A DNA stretch of 41,278 nucleotides from a virus (taxonomy: Duplodnaviria; Heunggongvirae; Uroviricota; Caudoviricetes): the IMG/VR virus record IMGVR_UViG_3300014682_000025; one strand, written 5' to 3'. The translations under genes were made by a program, and so were the position numbers. Positions 1-37,747 of the stretch are shown here, one piece after another (position 1 is the stretch's first letter; each line of letters starts with the position of its first letter). Under the pieces are notes generated by a model. It saw only the letters and a program-made list of their open reading frames with translations. It was not told the DNA's origin and ran no database searches.

Positions 1-1284
1 TTACAGACTTCTGGAAGGTTGCACAGCTCTTACAACACGCGGTTGATCTTCCGCAGCGTCTTCCAGCGCACTTAAATCACGGTCTTTCACTTCTGGCATT
101 TTCAGCGCAGAGATTAAACCAATCACTGAATATGCCATGATCATAATGGCGATCGGATACCAGGATTCCGTCATGGTGCAGAAAATACCCGCCAGGATAG
201 GACCAAAACCGGAAGCGATAAGACCACCAATTTCTTTAGAAATGGCCATCCGGGTAAAGCGGTTTTTACAGCCGAACATTTCTGCCATGGTAATGTTTTC
301 CAGAGCAAATAATCCCAGCACCGCACAGTTATGAATCACAATCAGTGCAACCATAATGGTGCTCGGGGCATAGCTTTTATCTACAATGATAGAAAGCATT
401 GGCCATGCCAGCACAATCGCGGAGGTATTCATAATAATATACGGGATCCGGCGACCAATTTTATCGGATAACCAACCAAGGAACGGAATGGTCATAAAGC
501 CGAGAATCGAACTAATCATCAATGCATCTGTTGGAATTGCTTTGTTAAACAATAACGTCTGCACTAAATAGCCTGCAAGGAAAGTCTGAATTAACCCGGA
601 GTTACCCGCCTGACCAAAACGCAGCCCTGTTGCCAGCCAGAAGGATTTGCTCTGGAACATGCTACCAGCAGGTGCAGGTTTTGCTGTGGGTTGGTTGCTG
701 TCATTAACCTTCTCAAAGACCGGGCTTTCTTTCAGATTCATACGTAACCAGATAGCAAAGACCATCACGACAACGCTCGCCAGGAACGGTATACGCCATC
801 CCCACGCCAGCAGTTCCTCTTTACTGAGAATGAAGAACATAAAGGCCCAGATTGCCGTTGCGCTCAAGGTTCCGCAGTTAGTTCCCATAGCTACAAATGA
901 GGAGATAATTCCGCGCTTACCTTTTGGTGCATATTCCGCCAGCATCGTACCGGCACCGGAAATTTCCGCACCTGCACCCAACCCCTGAATAATACGCAGC
1001 GTCACCAGCAAGATGGGGGCAAAAACACCAATCTGTGCATAGGTCGGTAACACACCAATTAAGGTGGTACAGATCCCCATCATGGTGATGGTAATAAAGA
1101 GCACTTTTTTACGCCCTATTCTGTCGCCCATTTTGCCGAAAATAAATGCTCCGACAATACGCGCCACATAACCTGCACCGTAGGTTCCCATTGCCAAAAT
1201 TAACGCCATTGCCGTTGATGATTCAGGAAAAAATATTTCATGAAACACTAACGCTGCGCCGAGCGAATATAACTGGAAATCCAT
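1..1284 (-). CDS. ydfJ: MFS-family transporter, 427 aa, many hydrophobic segments; chromosomal flank of the prophage
   Basis: Full-length ORF in track; polytopic membrane protein with MFS-like GxLaDrxGrkk motif (GKMGDRIGRKK); recognised as YdfJ from memory, no search run. Confidence 0.8.
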   Translation of the reverse strand: MDFQLYSLGAALVFHEIFFPESSTAMALILAMGTYGAGYVARIVGAFIFGKMGDRIGRKKVLFITITMMGICTTLIGVLPTYAQIGVFAPILLVTLRIIQGLGAGAEISGAGTMLAEYAPKGKRGIISSFVAMGTNCGTLSATAIWAFMFFILSKEELLAWGWRIPFLASVVVMVFAIWLRMNLKESPVFEKVNDSNQPTAKPAPAGSMFQSKSFWLATGLRFGQAGNSGLIQTFLAGYLVQTLLFNKAIPTDALMISSILGFMTIPFLGWLSDKIGRRIPYIIMNTSAIVLAWPMLSIIVDKSYAPSTIMVALIVIHNCAVLGLFALENITMAEMFGCKNRFTRMAISKEIGGLIASGFGPILAGIFCTMTESWYPIAIMIMAYSVIGLISALKMPEVKDRDLSALEDAAEDQPRVVRAVQPSRSL

Positions 1285-1887
1285 AATTCACAGGTGTTTT
1301 TTCCCATCCTGTGGTTTCCTTGGCGTTTTCTAGGTTTTTTCAGATAGTTGCATTTTTTAAAAAGCATCCTAAGTTCGATCTCAGTGTCTATCTGGGGCCT
1401 ATTTCTGTCCCATATATGCCCCAAAAAAACTCCCCAACAGATAAGTAGTTTTTTCATGGATTTATGCGTAAAATCAAGAACGGCTGGAAATCATTCAATA
1501 CTCACACTATCGAAAAATTTACCAGCCAACCGCAGCACGTTCTTGCATAAGGCGTGTCTGCGGTTTTTCAACTATTCAGATACATCACTCCCATCACATT
1601 CATTCCTCCGCATCAAAGGCATATAGGCTATATCACCTTGATATTTTTCTTCTTCAGATAAAAACTGTTATCTATGTATACTTTTAAACCCAATCCGTGT
1701 AGAGTCTCTGCATAAGATAGTTTGCAGTTGCCGCTTCAGCTTGCGCCATAAACCGCCTGATTTTTGCTGCCACCTGTTAGCATTCCTGTATACCTGAAAC
1801 GACAATGTTTATCTACGAACTTTAAGAACACCCAAGATAAAAATTGTCAACTATATCATATATAACACATTACTAATTCGAGGCTAT

Positions 1888-2001
1888 ATGAACAGCATAC
1901 TGATAATCACTTCTCTCCTTATCATATTCAGCATTTTTAGTCATGCCCTAATAAAATTAGGGATTGGCATATCCAATAACCCAGACAAAACCGATGTATA
2001 A
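1888..2001 (+). CDS. Candidate small hydrophobic peptide, 37 aa ([37 protein letters not shown])
   Basis: ATG with GAGG 4 nt upstream; one predicted TM-like segment; below 60-aa track cutoff; no homology claim. Confidence 0.2.
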
Positions 2002-2069
2002 GCCAACATATCCTGAATCAGACATACAATATCGCAATGAAAATCAATAATATTTTAAGGAATATCTTC

Positions 2070-2303
2070 ATGAAATCAAAAGACACCCTAAAGTGGTTCC
2101 CTGCGCAGCTTCCTGAAGTAAGAATTATCCTAGGGGATGCTGTAGTGGAAGTAGCAAAACAGGGAAGACCTATCAATACCAGAACATTGCTTGATTACAT
2201 TGAAGGAAACATAAAGAAAAAATCATGGCTGGATAACAAAGAATTATTACAAACAGCGATATCAGTTCTTAAAGACAACCAAAATTTAAATGGTAAAATG
2301 TAA
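2070..2303 (+). CDS. ydfK: YdfK-like small prophage protein (77 aa from MKSKDTLKWF)
   Basis: ORF 2037-2303; internal ATG at 2070 preceded by AAGGAA; sequence recognised as YdfK-family. Confidence 0.75.
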   Translation: MKSKDTLKWFPAQLPEVRIILGDAVVEVAKQGRPINTRTLLDYIEGNIKKKSWLDNKELLQTAISVLKDNQNLNGKM

Positions 2304-2532
2304 TATAATAAACTTACTTTTTTATCATTTTTCCACTTTAACAACATTTTGCTCCACTTTTCCACGACCAAACAACTTGAAATCTGGTTAAAATAACACG
2401 CAACACTATTCTTCTTCCTTGAGTCCGCCCGGAACTCGAAAAACAAACCGAGTTAAAGCCATTTTTCACAAAATCGATTTTGGGTCTCACCAAAATTACG
2501 GGGTTGCATACGCATTCGTTTATTTTCGAACG

Positions 2533-2572
2533 TGTACATACAAATATGTACAAAAATAATCAAAATTATTTT
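2533..2572. promoter_or_regulatory. Two adjacent perfect 20-bp dyads (TGTACATA-CAAA-TATGTACA and AAAATAAT-CAAA-ATTATTTT) about 50 bp upstream of pin
   Basis: Read directly from sequence; function unknown. Confidence 0.3.
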
Positions 2573-2619
2573 CTGAGATGCATTATGATATGAACACCAA
2601 TTTCGTATAGAATCTCACT

Positions 2620-3210
2620 ATGTCTCGAATTTTTGCTTACTGTCGGATATCAACGCTGGATCAGACCACCGAAAATCAACGCCGGGAAATCGAAAGTGCA
2701 GGTTTTAAAATCAAACCTCAGCAAATAATCGAAGAACACATTAGCGGCTCAGCAGCAACCAGTGAGCGTCCTGGTTTTAACCGGTTGCTTGCTCGCCTGA
2801 AATGTGGTGATCAATTGATTGTGACAAAACTGGATCGCCTTGGTTGTAATGCAATGGATATCAGGAAAACAGTGGAACAACTGACCGAAACAGGTATCAG
2901 AGTGCATTGCTTAGCATTGGGGGGCATTGACCTGACCAGTCCAACAGGAAAAATGATGATGCAAGTAATTTCAGCAGTCGCTGAATTTGAACGAGACCTT
3001 TTACTTGAACGCACTCATTCCGGGATAGTAAGAGCCCGCGGCGCAGGGAAACGTTTTGGTCGACCACCTGTGTTAAATGAAGAACAGAAACAGGTGGTAT
3101 TCGAACGAATTAAGTCAGGTGTAAGTATAAGTGCCATTGCCCGGGAATTCAAAACCTCGCGGCAAACCATTTTAAGAGCCAAAGCAAAACTTCAGACACC
3201 TGACATATAA
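2620..3210 (+). CDS. pinQ: Serine recombinase / DNA invertase of the Gin/Hin/Pin family, 196 aa
   Basis: N-terminal resolvase catalytic domain (YCRISTLDQ, Ser11) and C-terminal HTH; sits next to tail fibre genes as in Mu, P1 and e14. Confidence 0.9.
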
Positions 3211-3307
3211 AAAATAATCTCGGTGTGAGATGCTTTACGTCTTCCAAGCCCCCTTCCTTGCCGTAAATGGAAAGATACATCTAATTATAGAATTTATATG
3301 TTTTACC

Positions 3308-3883
3308 CTACGGCAGTGCTGGCCATTCAATATCCTGTGCAGTTGACGTATCAACACGGTTCAGCAATACCCGATACTTTTTCCATGCTTCCAGCAACGA
3401 GATTTCTTCCTCCGTTGCAATTTCCAGATCTGCAGCATCCTGAAGCGGCGCAATATGCTCACTGGCTACCTGCATCAGGTTGTTTTTTGTTTCTTCCGCC
3501 TCCCGGATCCGGAACAGTTTTTCTGCTTCCGTATCCTTCACCCAGGCTGTGCCGTTCCACTTCTGAAACTCCCCTTCCGGGGATAACCAGGTGACATTTT
3601 CCGGTAATGGGCCAAGTTCAGAAATAAATAACGCGTCGCCGGAAGCCACGTCATAGACGGTTTTACCCCGATGATCTTCAACGAGATGCCACGATGCCTC
3701 ATCACTGTTGAAAACAGCCACGAAGCCAGCCGGAATATCTGGCGGTGCAATATAGGAACTGTTTGCTGGCAGACCTGTATGAGGCGGAATATATGCGTCA
3801 CCTTCACCAATAAATTCATTAGTTCCTGCCAGCAGATTATAAATTTTTATGGTCCGTGGTTGTTCACTCATTCTGAATGCCAT
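3308..3883 (-). CDS. tfa: Tail fibre assembly protein Tfa, 191 aa
   Basis: N-terminus [24 protein letters not shown] matches lambda Tfa; start overlaps stf stop (ATGA). Confidence 0.85.
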
Positions 3884-6798
3884 TATGCAAGCCTCACAAT
3901 GTAGTTAAATGCGATGTTTTTGACAGTGTTTTCCGCGTTACCAGCAGCGTTAACGGTGATGGTGTGTCCATGTGAGCCAATCGCAACAGAGTGCGTATGA
4001 GCACCAATACCGACAGTATGTGCGTGAGCACCTGCAGATGCAGCTGTGCCGCTGACACTATGAGTGTGCGCTCCTGCAGCACTTGTATTCACACTGGCCG
4101 CAGACACTACCTTATGTACTGACCCATTTTGTGACCACTGGCTGACTGCTGATGCGCCTGTGACACTATGAGTATGGTTTCCGGCACTTGCGGCTGTACC
4201 GCTCACACTGTGCGTATGCGCCCCGGTGTTATTCGTGGATTTAGTGCCGTAATCAAACGACGATGTGGTTTTCGTCCCCAAATCCGTACTGGATGCACTG
4301 GCGCTGTGGGTGTGCGATTTAATGCCGTCCTGTTCCTGAGATAATACGGCCCGACCACTGGCAGGTTTGCCCTTAATCGTCCAGCCACGCATATCAGGGA
4401 TCACGCCTGACGGATAAGCGGTTGCAAGTTTCGGGTAAGCGGATTTGTCAAAAGTCTGCCCCTGCATCAGGGCATAACCAGACGGAACGGTATCTGATGG
4501 CCACGGGATTGGTGCGCCAGGCGGATAAAACTGCTCTGATGGCGTATAGAGTGAATAAACTGTACCGTCCGTTAACCCTTCCGGCTTATTAGCAGAATAT
4601 GCTGGTGACGTATGAATAGTCACGCTGGCATTACTGGTATAATCCCATTGAATATTTACACCAGTCGCATAATTTCCGATTGCAACGTAAATATCGTAAG
4701 TATCACCAGATGTATTGACCCAGGCAAAATTTGTAAACCCTGTCGATGTGCGCTGCCATAAAGCACCAGTAATCCCCTTCGGATTACCATTACCTGCACG
4801 CAAAACAAGTTCAGATATACCTGCCTGTTGAGGTGACCCCACGTTAAATCCCGCGCCACCAATCAACGTAATTGAAACAACAGAACTCGCCTGTGGCATG
4901 GTTACCGTTGCTAATTTGAACCAACCAGCACCACCGCTGAAGGACATTGTTGTTGAGTTAAGCGTACCAATATCTTTCGGCGTCAGTGTTATATCCGCTG
5001 AAAGCGCCTTACCATTCACCTTACGGGCAGAAGGTACCCGACCATTCGCATTATCATTAGCTGCTTTCACTGCTTTCGGTGTCGCGGCAAGCGTTTCAGA
5101 TGCGCTGTTGGTTGCACTACTGAGCTGGACAATTCCTTTTTGTGCTGTCGTAGCGTCCTGAGCAGTATATTTCCCGTTAGCAAGGTCATAGGCTGCCTTT
5201 ACCGACTTTGGCGTTGCCGCCAGCATTTCAGATGTGCTGTTGGTCGCGCTGCTGAGCTGAACTATCCCTTTCTGTGCTGTCGTTGCATCCTGTGCGGTGT
5301 ATTTCCCGTTAGCCAGCTCATACGCGGCCTTAACGGCTTTTGGCGTTGCCGCCAGTGACTCGGAAGTGCTGTTAGTCGCACTGCTGAGCTGTACTATCCC
5401 CTTTTTCGTCGTGCTCGCATCCTCAAGCGCCACGGCGGATGCAATATCCTCTGCCCGTTTTGCCGCTGTCTCGGCGCGCGTTGCCGCGGATTCCGCCGTA
5501 CTTTTGCTCTGAGCTGCCGCCGTCGCACTGCCAGCTGCCTCTGTCGCCTTCGTGGATGCCGTCGTGGCGCTGCCCTTTGCTGCTGACGCCTGTCTGGTCG
5601 CCTCATCTTTTGAAGCAGACGCAGATGATGCCGATGACGCCGCCGAACTGGCGGACGATGCGGCAGCCGTTTTTGAGGATTCTGCGCTGGTTTCCGACGC
5701 TTTCGCGTTCGTCTCGGATGTCTTCGCTGCGGAAGCAGACCTCGCTGCTGCGCTGGCCTGTTCAGTGGCTTCGCCAGCCTTCGTTGTGGCTGTTGAAGCG
5801 GACGATGCGGCGCTTTCTGCCGATTTTCCGGCAGCGGTGGCACTGGCTGAGGCCTGCCCGGCACTTGTTGACGCGGCACTGGCAGACGACGCAGCCGCTG
5901 TTTTTGAGCCTGCCGCAGCTGAGGCGCTCTGTCCCGCTGCCGTCTCAGAAGACCTGGCGTTCGTCTCGGACGTTTTTGCCGCCTTCGCGGAATTTGCTGC
6001 CGCCGTTGCCGAGGAAGCTGCGCTACTGGCGCTCGAGGATGCGTTCGTTTCTGATGATTTTGCCGCCTCTTTTGAAGCCGACGCATCCCGGGCTGAGGTG
6101 GCAGCTTCTGACGCTTTCGTAGTCGCGGTGGATGCAGAAGTGGCGGCTGATTGTTGTGACGCTGCAGCATTCGTTTCTGACGTTTTCGCGGCAGCGGCAC
6201 TGGTAGCTGCCGCGCTTTTTGAGGACTCTGCAGCGGCAGCACTTTTTTCCGCTTCAGTGGCCTTTGTTGATGCCGTTCCTGCGCTGGAAGACGCTGACTG
6301 AGCCGACGAAGCGGCCTGTCCGGCTGACGTGCTGGCTGCACGTGCTGAATCTGCAGCATCAGTCGCATGGGTTGCCGCCTCACGGGCAGATGTGCCGGCA
6401 TCACTGGCTGACTTCTTCGCGGCTGCCGTGTTCTGTGCCACCACGGACGCGTTACGCGCCACCTCTTCCACCATCTGTTCAAAACGGCGCAGTGCCTCCG
6501 GACGGGCATCATCCTCCGTCATGGCACCGAGAAAATCATTCAGCGTACCGGGTTGAGAATCTTCATACACGGTGATGGTCCCGGCATGTGACGGCGGGAA
6601 TCCTTCCACCAACAGAATAACGCTGTACTGCCCGTACTCAACGTCCATGCTGTAACGCCCGGCTTCATCCGGATTTTCTGAGGCCAGCGTGTTCACCACC
6701 ACCGTGGTGCTGTTACGTTTTGCTTTCAGCTGGATTGTGCAGTTCTGTACCGGTTTTCCTGTGCCGTCTTTCAGTACACCTGAAATCTTTACTGCCAT
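3883..6798 (-). CDS. stf: Side tail fibre protein Stf (about 971 aa from MAVKISG), apparently intact
   Basis: Track ORF 3883-6804 starts at GTG; ATG two codons downstream gives lambda-like [12 protein letters not shown]; Ala/Ser/Thr-rich low-complexity region, [11 protein letters not shown] repeats, C-terminal H-x-H repeats. Confidence 0.85.
5045..5425. repeat. About three tandem copies of a 132-bp (44-aa) repeat within stf
   Basis: Repeated DNA and repeated peptide [41 protein letters not shown]; boundaries approximate. Confidence 0.7.
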
Positions 6799-34692: not shown

Positions 34693-34908
34693 CAGAATCC
34701 TTCCGGATAATTAGCTCTCCCCTTTAAGGGACCATCCCTCTTATCCCTGCGCGCTACTTAAGTATTTTTGATTCTATTCCGGCACCGTCCAGAACTTCAA
34801 ACGCGTTGAAAATAAAAACAAAAACCCGCCGAAGCGGGTTAAGTGCGGGTGCGTTGAGGATGCCTGCCACATCAGAGGTGGCGAGGGATTTCTCCCTCGC
34901 CGGGTCTC

Positions 34909-35064
34909 TTACTCCTCAGGTTCGTAAGCTGTGAAGACAGCGACCTCCGTCTGGCCGGTTCGGATTCGTACCTCGCAGAGGTCTTTCCTCGTTACCAGTG
35001 CCGTCACTATGACGGTTAAACAGATGACGATCAGGGCGATTAACATCGCCTTTTGCTGCTTCAT
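34909..35064 (-). CDS. hokD: Hok-family type I toxin (51 aa; MKQQKAMLIALIVICLTVIVTALVTRKDLCEVRIRTGQTEVAVFTAYEPEE)
   Basis: Canonical Hok peptide; track ORF 34909-35121 extends upstream in frame. Confidence 0.85.
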   Translation of the reverse strand: MKQQKAMLIALIVICLTVIVTALVTRKDLCEVRIRTGQTEVAVFTAYEPEE

Positions 35065-35728
35065 AGCCTGCTTCTCCTTGCCTTTCGGCACGTAAGAGGC
35101 TAACCTACATATGTCTAGCATGAAATTGGCCTCAGATTAATGTTAAGCGTCTTGCAGGACGCGTAATGTTAACTGGGGCTTTTCTCTATCTGCCGTTGGT
35201 GTTCATGCCTGAGGCAGATAGCCTCAAGCACCCGCAGCAATTCTACTTAACTCCCGTCACCTCGCCAATATAAAATCAATCAGAAAGGCGATCCGTAAGA
35301 ACAACAGCAAGACAATAAATTGCCATTACAGCCGCAATAGCTAGCGCACATTTGAGAACCAGCACGACAACCTCCTGTATTGGATATACACCTGCCCTGA
35401 TAAATATGAGGCTGTCTCGTCAGTGCTTCAATACAACTATTGGGTATAGTTTCTGTGATTTTGTTCTGTAGAAATGGAACACAACAACCAGTCACCACCA
35501 ACTCTTCTTTAAATACGCCAAGTCCGACGTAAGCTAACCTTCTAGTCCGCTTTGAGCGAAAGGCGAACACTGGCAATTAGCCCGTAACTATTGAATATAT
35601 TACTAATGACCCTGTTATCGGCACAAATATTTCAGAAGACATAAAAATTACTTATTAATAGAACCAATAAGTATTAACTGAATAAAAAACCTTAAGGCAT
35701 CATCTAAATCTTATATTGCACTTTAACA

Positions 35729-37480
35729 TTAGTGCAGGACTTCATTTAAAGTCGAATTAAAACTCCTCAAGCTCTCAATAATTTGATCAAATATAAAATC
35801 TAAAGCATGGCTATAACCGGATGCCAAAGTTGCGCTATCAAAACCAAGACTAGCTAGATGTTCAATGGATTTATTGACTGCTTCATGAGCTTCAGCGTTC
35901 CTCAAGTCATTATTTATAAATAGAGCTGCTAATGTATGATTGGGTGAATTATACTTTGCAAGTTCATTGGCATGTTTTAGCGCGGATTGCTCTTCATTTT
36001 GCTCATTAATAACACTTGTAAGGTTTAATATTCCTTGCAATAATTTTAGCGTTTGCAATCTTTCAATATCCTCAGCCTTCACCCCCATAGCAATACTTAA
36101 TTTCTTCAATGAACCAGTTTTAATTTTAGTAATGATCTCGTTTATAGTCTTGCATCTAGCTAGGAAATCTTGCTCTTGCATATCGATTGAGGCTACATGA
36201 GCAAGCTTTTGCAGTACAGGATAATTTCTAATGCCTTCTTCATCTAGTTCGTCTCTGTTGTATTCAAAAATATCAGAACTCGATAGGGGAACATCTAAAA
36301 CTCTACCTAGAGACACTAGATTTCCATTAAGCTCAGTTAGTTCTCTAGCAAATCTAAAAGTCTTAGAAACAATATGCTCATTATCTAATGAATTAGTATC
36401 AATAAGGCTTTGGTCTTTCGCATAATCAAACACATGATATATTTCCTTTTCTGGAACTCCTTGGTAAAGATCATAAAAATATATTTTCACTAAGTTCCTA
36501 CCGACTCTAGTACAGCCTCTAAATGCCCATTGCCCGCCATAGCTAGGATCTGCATGATAGTGATTGCCATAAAAAAATGGAATGGCTTCGTATGTCTTAT
36601 CTTTTTCATATTTAGTAAGAAAAGCATCATCAACATATACGTATTCGCCACTACGATAATCGGTAGCTCCCGACATTGTTATCGGTGACTTGTGACCGGG
36701 CCATACTAATGTGTTGACATCTAATTCAGAGCAAAGCTCTGGCTGAACAGATTGAACAGTTCCCCATGCTTGCAGCAATATCCTATCTGTATGGTCAACT
36801 ATTTCAAATTCAATCCAAGGAAGTTCGATTCTAAAGTGATTAGAACCTGATAAGAGTCCGAGTACCTCTTTAGTTCGTTCGATATAGGCTTCGAAGAAAA
36901 AAACTTTTACTCCAACACAACCTTTCATCCATAAATATTTTCTGAGGTAATCATTCCTCATTGTCCATTTAATATCTTTGTTGCTTTTGAAATGATATTC
37001 TCTTGAGACATCGCCTTGCACGACTCCATATGATGGCGAAGAAACCTCATCAAAAATTACTTTTTGTTCATCATCCCCTATGAGCCTTGGTTTTAATCCC
37101 AGTTTCATCCAGACATCTTCGGCCAACAAAAAGGAGTAGTGAAGACTTGAACCCCAAGAAGCTACAATATACCCATAACCGGAGATAGATATATCTGTAC
37201 CCCAAGCTCCACCTTTCTCTGTACAGTCCTGAGTGGAAAATGTGACGACACCGTCACGGGATTCACGTAACACACTTAGATTTGCAACATCATTCTCAGG
37301 AACTACGGCCATGATCATATGAGTGTAATCATAGTCATCTTGATACTTATTTCTTTCGTAATGATGGGTTACAGTAACTTCTCGCTGGGGGTTAGAATTG
37401 TCTTCAACAAATAATAGGTCCTTTAAACCCTGTGGTATTTGCTCAGCCGGTAAAGGAAGCTTTGATAAATAATCAAGCAC
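35729..37480 (-). CDS. Large protein of unknown function, 583 aa, markedly AT-rich; candidate accessory or defence gene
   Basis: Long uninterrupted ORF with GTG start 8 nt after GGAGGG; AT-rich flanks; no domain recognised; C-terminal R-x4-H (LRNAEAHEAV). Confidence 0.7.
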   Translation of the reverse strand: MLDYLSKLPLPAEQIPQGLKDLLFVEDNSNPQREVTVTHHYERNKYQDDYDYTHMIMAVVPENDVANLSVLRESRDGVVTFSTQDCTEKGGAWGTDISISGYGYIVASWGSSLHYSFLLAEDVWMKLGLKPRLIGDDEQKVIFDEVSSPSYGVVQGDVSREYHFKSNKDIKWTMRNDYLRKYLWMKGCVGVKVFFFEAYIERTKEVLGLLSGSNHFRIELPWIEFEIVDHTDRILLQAWGTVQSVQPELCSELDVNTLVWPGHKSPITMSGATDYRSGEYVYVDDAFLTKYEKDKTYEAIPFFYGNHYHADPSYGGQWAFRGCTRVGRNLVKIYFYDLYQGVPEKEIYHVFDYAKDQSLIDTNSLDNEHIVSKTFRFARELTELNGNLVSLGRVLDVPLSSSDIFEYNRDELDEEGIRNYPVLQKLAHVASIDMQEQDFLARCKTINEIITKIKTGSLKKLSIAMGVKAEDIERLQTLKLLQGILNLTSVINEQNEEQSALKHANELAKYNSPNHTLAALFINNDLRNAEAHEAVNKSIEHLASLGFDSATLASGYSHALDFIFDQIIESLRSFNSTLNEVLH

Positions 37481-37747
37481 TTAATAGCCCTCCGTAATAA
37501 TCATGAGTGTTTACTAACACAGTAATCATATCCATTTGGGATGGTTTATGTCTAACCTTCTTTTGTCCATAAAATCATTGCAAGGCTGAAAATTTTATAA
37601 AGACAGATACTACTATGTACCTGTCGCTGGATAATACCGTTATTTTTCAAACTGTCCGCTCTTGGCACAAGGCTGCAAACCATAGTAGTTCTAGCCCTGT
37701 GCCACCGAAGTGTCAATTAATATCTGAACTAATGCTCTTTAATCTCG

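Follow-up and report, generated by a model that had tools for sequence, protein, structure and literature searches.

The 41,278-nucleotide stretch of viral DNA analysed here (the window; IMG/VR record IMGVR_UViG_3300014682_000025) carries, near one end, a gene for a protein of 583 amino acids that belongs to an unnamed superfamily. We found that this gene is the cargo of a small cassette that moves horizontally between bacterial genera, that its product joins a beta-rich N-terminal domain to a helical C-terminal domain, and that an arginine and a histidine in the C-terminal domain, R527 and H532, are invariant among its homologues. We think it probable that this is a conflict or defence gene of some kind. 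The more specific proposal, that it encodes a solitary conflict or defence protein in which a sensor is coupled to a HEPN-like ribonuclease (RNase), carried as promoter-equipped cargo in a prophage hotspot, has in our view about an even chance of being correct. The features that bear on this proposal are the following.

35562-37652, minus strand: horizontally mobile cassette of about 2.1 kb, made up of the open reading frame (ORF) with 172 bp upstream and 167 bp downstream of it
35729-37480, minus strand: protein-coding gene for the 583-residue protein, an ORF with a GTG start; member of an unnamed superfamily
36410-37480, minus strand: N-terminal beta-rich domain, residues 1-357; putative sensor or regulatory domain
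35729-36409, minus strand: C-terminal all-alpha domain, residues ~358-583; putative HEPN-like effector
35885-35902, minus strand: R527-N-A-E-A-H532, an R-x4-H motif and putative catalytic site (R527 at 35900-35902, H532 at 35885-35887)
37488-37493, minus strand: Shine-Dalgarno-like GGAGGG, 7 nt upstream of the GTG start
37525-37554, minus strand: promoter-like element TAGACA-18 nt-TATGAT inside the cassette, 10/12 match

An earlier note on this DNA had placed an R-x4-H motif at 35888-35905 and had cautioned that it was short enough to occur by chance. The motif is present, although that range stops one codon short of H532, and the caution was justified. The protein has no RxxxxH other than R527-H532, and by composition alone a protein would be expected to have about 0.78 of them, so that the motif is uninformative in a single sequence. 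Across homologues, R527 and H532 are invariant in 53 of 53 sequences with at least 37% identity, where they lie within F-x-N-N-D-L-R-N-A-[DE]-A-H-E, and in 75 of 75 sequences when a divergent tier at 19-25% identity is included. Only nine columns are invariant in the 75 sequences (L129, W260, D285, L288, W318, R325, R442, R527 and H532). The residue directly after the arginine, N528 in the window, is polar in 49 of the 75 (Q in 31, N in 15, T in three). In an AlphaFold2 model of the protein (mean predicted local distance difference test score 88.8), from which the domains and helices were taken, helix 515-527 is predicted to end with R527 and helix 532-544 to begin with H532.

HEPN families share a conserved Rx4-6H motif with a polar residue, mostly N, D or H, directly after the R, and those in which the motif is strictly conserved are predicted to have RNase activity, whereas regulators tend to lose it (PMC3710099). 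The 583-residue protein has an Rx4-6H motif, a polar residue after the R in most, though not all, of its family, and a motif that spans the end of one helix and the beginning of the following one, the placement described for HEPN. The motif and its position in the predicted secondary structure thus point to membership of the HEPN fold, and to that extent they bear out the suggestion of the earlier note that the motif fits a HEPN RNase. Fold and profile comparisons did not add to it: no significant match to an established HEPN family was found with Pfam on the protein and its 53 and 75 relatives, or with hhalign against DUF4209. Taking these results together, we lean slightly towards a C-terminal domain that is a catalytically active HEPN-type RNase.

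No domain had been recognised in the protein when it was first noted, and the model libraries agree; they also show no homology to a housekeeping or phage-structural family. Pfam (2025), NCBIfam (2026) and PADLOC v2 gave no match to it, and PHROGs gave matches only at E>0.2. When both sets of relatives (53 and 75) were searched with Pfam at E<=10, no family recurred, and the sole HEPN-profile hint among them was one MtlR match (E 0.017). Profile searches of PDB sequences returned coiled-coil or designed-repeat noise only, and a Foldseek search of the structure model against the PDB returned nothing significant and no HEPN protein among its matches. The 205 close homologues have a constant length of ~585 residues and are all annotated ‘hypothetical’; an exhaustive profile search collected 431 cluster representatives at 50% identity, among which no domain shuffling was visible. 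Members of the divergent tier have 585-600 residues and match positions 101-585. Peptides and accessions of the protein were not found in the searchable literature or in the DefensePredictor supplements, a search that did not extend to subscription papers, notably on E. coli prophage defence.

The gene is rare, patchy and mobile. A megablast search of 5,426 complete E. coli genomes did not find it, but the exact protein occurs in draft assemblies, always in the same slot between DUF977 and hokD. At least seven enterobacterial genera have copies with more than 90% identity (E. coli, Klebsiella, Raoultella, Citrobacter, Kosakonia, Providencia and Erwinia). About 122 of 185,579 species representatives carry the gene, and they are spread over Gamma-, Beta- and Alphaproteobacteria, Nitrospirales, Acidobacteriota, one cyanobacterium, Bipolaricaulis and Dadabacteria. 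One 94%-identical copy (L112, 6001-7752) lies immediately downstream of proB-proA in an enterobacterial chromosome, beside small helix-turn-helix genes and outside any prophage. Thus, the cassette moves independently of phage. The gene is also under purifying selection, as the ratio of non-synonymous to synonymous substitution rates (dN/dS) is about 0.15-0.20 (0.11-0.20 over the comparisons with five intact homologues). A copy in Erwinia rhapontici 1SR (L021, 8001-9753) appears to be disrupted; its aligned frame stops after 136 codons, and the database entry is only a 459-residue fragment.

The limits of the cassette were drawn from two comparisons. Homology of the backbone to the prophages of ATCC 25922 and EC1722-1, at 96-97%, stops at 35561 and resumes at 37653, and copies in Yokenella, Scandinavium and Erwinia show 93-94% DNA identity across 35545-37668. 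These boundaries define a transferred unit of about 2.1 kb in which the ORF is accompanied by some 170 bp on each side. It follows that, of the AT-rich upstream region previously described at 37481-37747, only 37481-37652 belongs to the cassette and the remainder is backbone. The ORF is otherwise exactly as the earlier note gave it, with its minus-strand position, its GTG start and its 583 codons, and it is indeed more AT-rich than its surroundings. Its guanine-plus-cytosine (GC) content is 0.373 (0.295 at third codon positions, GC3) and that of the cassette 0.364, compared with 0.491 and 0.476 in the 2-kb flanks and 0.491 in the window; only 5.4% of equal-sized segments in a composition scan of the window were equally AT-rich. 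The strong ribosome-binding site was likewise correctly read, with GGAGGG at the spacing listed above, and this sequence is kept in the cassette copies of four genera and partly in Yersinia and Kluyvera. The GTG start is supported because homologues begin at the same codon position, which is ATG in Yersinia, Kluyvera and Mixta.

Both hexamers of the promoter-like element are conserved in six of seven genera, and Kluyvera has TATAAT. As the region has no more promoter-like sites than shuffled sequence would be expected to have, it is this conservation that leads us to regard TAGACA-18-TATGAT as the putative promoter of the gene. No terminator was found. The imperfect inverted repeat of 10 bp that had been noticed upstream is real and somewhat longer, with 12-nt arms at 37663-37674 and 37693-37704 that are complementary at 11 of 12 positions. 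However, it lies within backbone DNA common to the ATCC 25922 prophage, which carries other cargo, and so it is not a feature or operator of the 583-residue gene, and we rejected it as a regulator of that gene. The repeat sits right at the junction with the cassette: copies of the cassette in other genera remain homologous as far as 37665-37668, within its first arm. It could terminate the DUF977 operon or serve as a recombination junction where cargo is exchanged.

The DNA of the window is that of an E. coli prophage, lambdoid and Qin/Rac-like. It contains, in order, a host gene for a major facilitator superfamily transporter (1-1284), a Pin-type invertase, tail fibre genes, structural genes, a lysis cassette, antiterminator Q, DUF968, Rem, hok/sok, the 583-residue ORF, DUF977, a replication protein, YdaT, Cro and a cI-like repressor. 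Flanked by DUF977 and hokD, the gene is oriented like the early-right operon of the prophage. Sister prophages have the same slot, with flanks that are 96-98% identical and with different cargo. In K-12 MG1655 Qin, relB-relE stands directly before hokD; the earlier note was right about that strain, but relBE is the particular cargo of K-12 and not the normal occupant. In ATCC 25922-type sister prophages the slot holds a protein of 595 residues on the opposite strand, which matches the PADLOC candidate system PDC-S39 (E 2e-102).

L098 (E. coli ATCC 25922), 3239-5026, and L099, same coordinates, strand opposite to the window ORF: DUF7380-DUF4209 protein

A RelA/SpoT-domain protein occupies the slot in another strain, and elsewhere it contains an AbiH family protein, an FRG-domain protein, methyltransferases or QueH, an ATP-binding protein with DUF1627, or other hypotheticals. 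In BL21 it is empty. There are at least eight different contents among related prophages, and recognised defence or toxin genes are among them in other strains. The variability that the earlier note proposed to look for is therefore present, and the DUF977-hokD slot behaves as a cargo and defence hotspot. The 583-residue gene has the properties of prophage cargo (a ‘moron’): it is a discrete insert of foreign composition, has conserved backbone genes on either side, varies among relatives and carries a promoter-like element.

Other parts of the prophage were also recorded. Three further AT-rich islands (GC 0.34-0.42) lie at 800-3500, 25650-29450 and 29800-32500; they contain the Pin-type serine invertase (2620-3210), a DUF1398/YdfO-like gene (26819-27244) and a cold-shock-protein gene region, all typical Qin accessory genes. 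The sok antitoxin RNA of hok/sok gave a strong Rfam match (114 bits; 35059-35233, minus strand), and an isrK-like Rfam match below threshold (25.7 bits, E 0.011) was seen just downstream of hokD at 34819-34900 on the minus strand. Between the cassette and hok/sok there is a 98-codon TTG ORF (35280-35576, minus strand). It has no Pfam match and crosses the cassette boundary (35561), and so is unlikely to be a gene.

Based on these results, we propose a model for how the protein might work. The gene would be a horizontally acquired ‘moron’ in the DUF977-hokD slot that encodes a self-contained, single-polypeptide conflict or defence protein. Its N-terminal 357 residues, which are beta-rich and Avs3-like, may form a sensor or autoinhibitory module, and its helical C-terminal ~225 residues would carry a metal-independent RNase site of the HEPN type built around R527 and H532. 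The gene's own promoter probably drives expression in the lysogen, where the protein would be kept inactive. A cue from an infecting phage would then be sensed by the N-terminal domain and would activate the R/H site, most likely by dimerization as in other HEPN enzymes. The activated site might cleave host RNA, phage RNA or both, and this would lead to growth arrest or aborted infection.

Several observations weigh against this model. The residue after the arginine is I or V in 17 of the 75 homologues (I in 10, V in seven), and some proteins with the HEPN fold, such as MtlR, are regulators and not nucleases. For a phage sensor, the N-terminal domain shows unusually high conservation. No PADLOC model matches the protein. 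Finally, carriage on phages is the exception: tblastn found no match in 50,697 GenBank phage genomes, and only 10 IMG/VR contigs carry a superfamily gene, as do eight plasmids.

An alternative is that the protein is a toxin for addiction, stabilization or the stress response, i.e. a self-regulated RNase from which the cassette or prophage would profit through post-segregational killing or growth control, as with the modules relBE and hok/sok found at this same site. The presence of relBE in the slot in K-12, the hok/sok locus that follows, and an invariant R-x4-H, which would suit a toxin RNase, all speak for this idea. We nevertheless consider it unlikely. The cassette flanks hold no antitoxin-sized ORF (none of at least 25 residues lies wholly within them, except one 32-codon TTG ORF). 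An antitoxin RNA or repeat encoded in the cassette was also considered and set aside, as Rfam and tandem-repeat searches of the cassette found neither. No small neighbour is conserved in the 80 loci that we surveyed, and a two-domain protein of 583 residues is atypical of the toxin in a toxin-antitoxin (TA) pair. TA and defence roles are not, however, mutually exclusive.

It is also possible, but doubtful to a similar degree, that the protein is non-catalytic or serves the phage. Under this explanation the C-terminus would be a HEPN-like or unrelated helical binding module that functions in regulation, anti-defence or lysogenic conversion, and R527 and H532 would bind a ligand or nucleic acid. 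The strict conservation of Rx4-6H argues for an active RNase instead, given the tendency of regulators to lose the motif described above (PMC3710099). Benefit to the phage is also difficult to reconcile with a gene that is found mostly outside phages, in islands with Gabija, Shedu and restriction-modification genes.

A third possibility is that the protein is the orphan half of a two-protein system and is inactive alone. Such partners do occur among the 80 loci. In eight of them a protein of ~570 residues is encoded beside the homologue; it shares a homologous C-terminal domain with the 583-residue protein (hhalign probability 90.9%, E 1.2e-6), and it has its own conserved R-x5-H.

L094 6254-7969, L090 6265-7968, L097 6202-7968 and L091 6253-7968: ~570-residue neighbour, no Pfam or PADLOC match
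L044 2885-4660, L040 6158-7912, L035 1527-3239 and L023 9805-11379: ~570-residue neighbour, no Pfam or PADLOC match

The homologue and this paralogue-like neighbour may form a heteromeric HEPN-like pair. A related subgroup of the neighbour is without R-x5-H (L065, L070, L072, L048 and L062). The other candidate partner is a UvrD/GajB-like helicase of ~1,080 residues whose gene adjoins the homologue in five loci (L061, L064, L030, L063 and L072). In two of these it overlaps the start of the homologue by 10 nt (L061, 2352-5585; L064, 4737-7970), which suggests that the two genes are translationally coupled in part of the family. Neither partner is present at most of the 80 loci, and the single-gene cassette of 2.1 kb moves alone between genera with its promoter and ORF intact and under purifying selection, so we regard the two-protein explanation as quite unlikely. 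Indeed, no neighbour at all is conserved across the 80 loci, and we rejected a conserved operon partner for most of them. The nearest neighbours include Gabija GajB-like helicases, Shedu SduA, AAA_15/21 ATPases, ResIII, a type I restriction subunit and D12 methylases; enrichment in defence islands is meant as a qualitative statement.

That the gene is an ordinary unannotated phage or host housekeeping gene, for which its early-right operon orientation could be cited, is very improbable and effectively refuted by its distribution, as it is found in 0/5,426 complete E. coli genomes and 0/50,697 phage genomes, its slot is empty or otherwise filled in sister prophages, it is patchy across phyla, and its GC content is foreign.

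If the sensor and RNase model is validated, an unmodelled superfamily (431 cluster representatives in several phyla, none of them annotated), which Pfam, NCBIfam and PADLOC v2 miss altogether, would join the anti-phage catalogue. As a single-gene system it would be compact and would offer an obvious pair of residues to mutate. The DUF977-hokD junction of Qin/Rac-like prophages would become a defence hotspot whose other uncharacterized occupants are also of interest. The Avs3-like N-terminal domain offers a route to the trigger, and the loci in which a second protein with the same kind of C-terminal domain stands alongside could throw light on the regulation of HEPN dimers.

Among known systems, the closest in outward form is the DUF7380-DUF4209 protein (PDC-S39; the C6orf70-type HEPN family of Anantharaman et al. 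2013). DUF4209 itself is among the HEPN families predicted to be active (PMC3710099). Like the 583-residue protein, this protein of ~595 residues is encoded by a single gene in the DUF977-hokD slot, has a solitary and patchy distribution, and ends in a domain with the signature D-L-R-N-x-x-A-H; in the ATCC 25922 protein the sequence is G-D-L-R-N-Q-L-A-H-G-Y, with R546 and H551 invariant. The two differ in that it lies on the opposite strand and that its N-terminal region is another Pfam domain, DUF7380. We rejected, at the sequence level, the idea that the 583-residue family is a divergent member of DUF4209/PDC-S39: the DUF4209, DUF7380 and PDC-S39 models do not match the protein, although one relative touches DUF7380 (E 0.21), and hhalign of the family against DUF4209 gave a probability of 0.65% at full length and 0.85% for the C-termini only, with motif aligned on motif. 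On paper the two proteins work alike, but we do not treat them as a single family.

Single-protein HEPN abortive infection (Abi) and defence proteins, such as RnlA/LsoA (RNase LS), the AbiD/AbiF type and the CBS+HEPN system DS-11 of DefensePredictor, include validated defence systems, e.g. DS-11. They differ from the 583-residue protein in that no profile match connects them and that its N-terminal domain has no relation to the N-terminal domains of the CBS, RNase H-like or Abi kinds. In addition, rnlAB and lsoAB have an adjacent antitoxin, whereas there is none beside the 583-residue gene. The relBE locus of K-12 Qin is alike in its position directly upstream of hokD and in that RelBE is an RNA-targeting toxin, but it is a two-gene type II TA system of small proteins with no relation in sequence or fold.

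The remaining comparison concerns the N-terminal domain, which gives the structure match to SeAvs3, an antiviral STAND nucleoside triphosphatase (NTPase; PDB 8DGC); a match from the helical C-terminus was considered and rejected. The match is probably not to the nuclease or the NTPase of Avs3, because no Cap4, PD-(D/E)xK or P-loop structures are among the top structure matches, the protein has no Walker A motif, and there is no lysine among the invariant N-terminal columns. SeAvs3 has 2,028 residues compared with 583, contains a STAND NTPase and an array of tetratricopeptide repeats that the 583-residue protein lacks, and uses a Cap4 effector where ours would be HEPN-like. Avs sensor domains are reported to be reused in proteins without the NTPase, including one with a HEPN-like RNase (PMC13581612). 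A further, rather improbable form of the model is that the protein is a minimal, NTPase-free pattern-recognition receptor, in which a domain related to a target-binding part of Avs3 would recognize a conserved phage protein, e.g. the large terminase, and would be wired to an unrecognized HEPN clade able to pair with the ~570-residue Rx5H neighbour. Were this true, it would amount to a new defence family that has Avs-type sensing without its coupling to STAND oligomerization. In sum, single-protein HEPN defence genes in prophage hotspots are a kind already known; what is new here is an unmodelled superfamily with an N-terminal fold otherwise seen only in Avs3, and its occasional pairing with a protein that shares its C-terminal domain.

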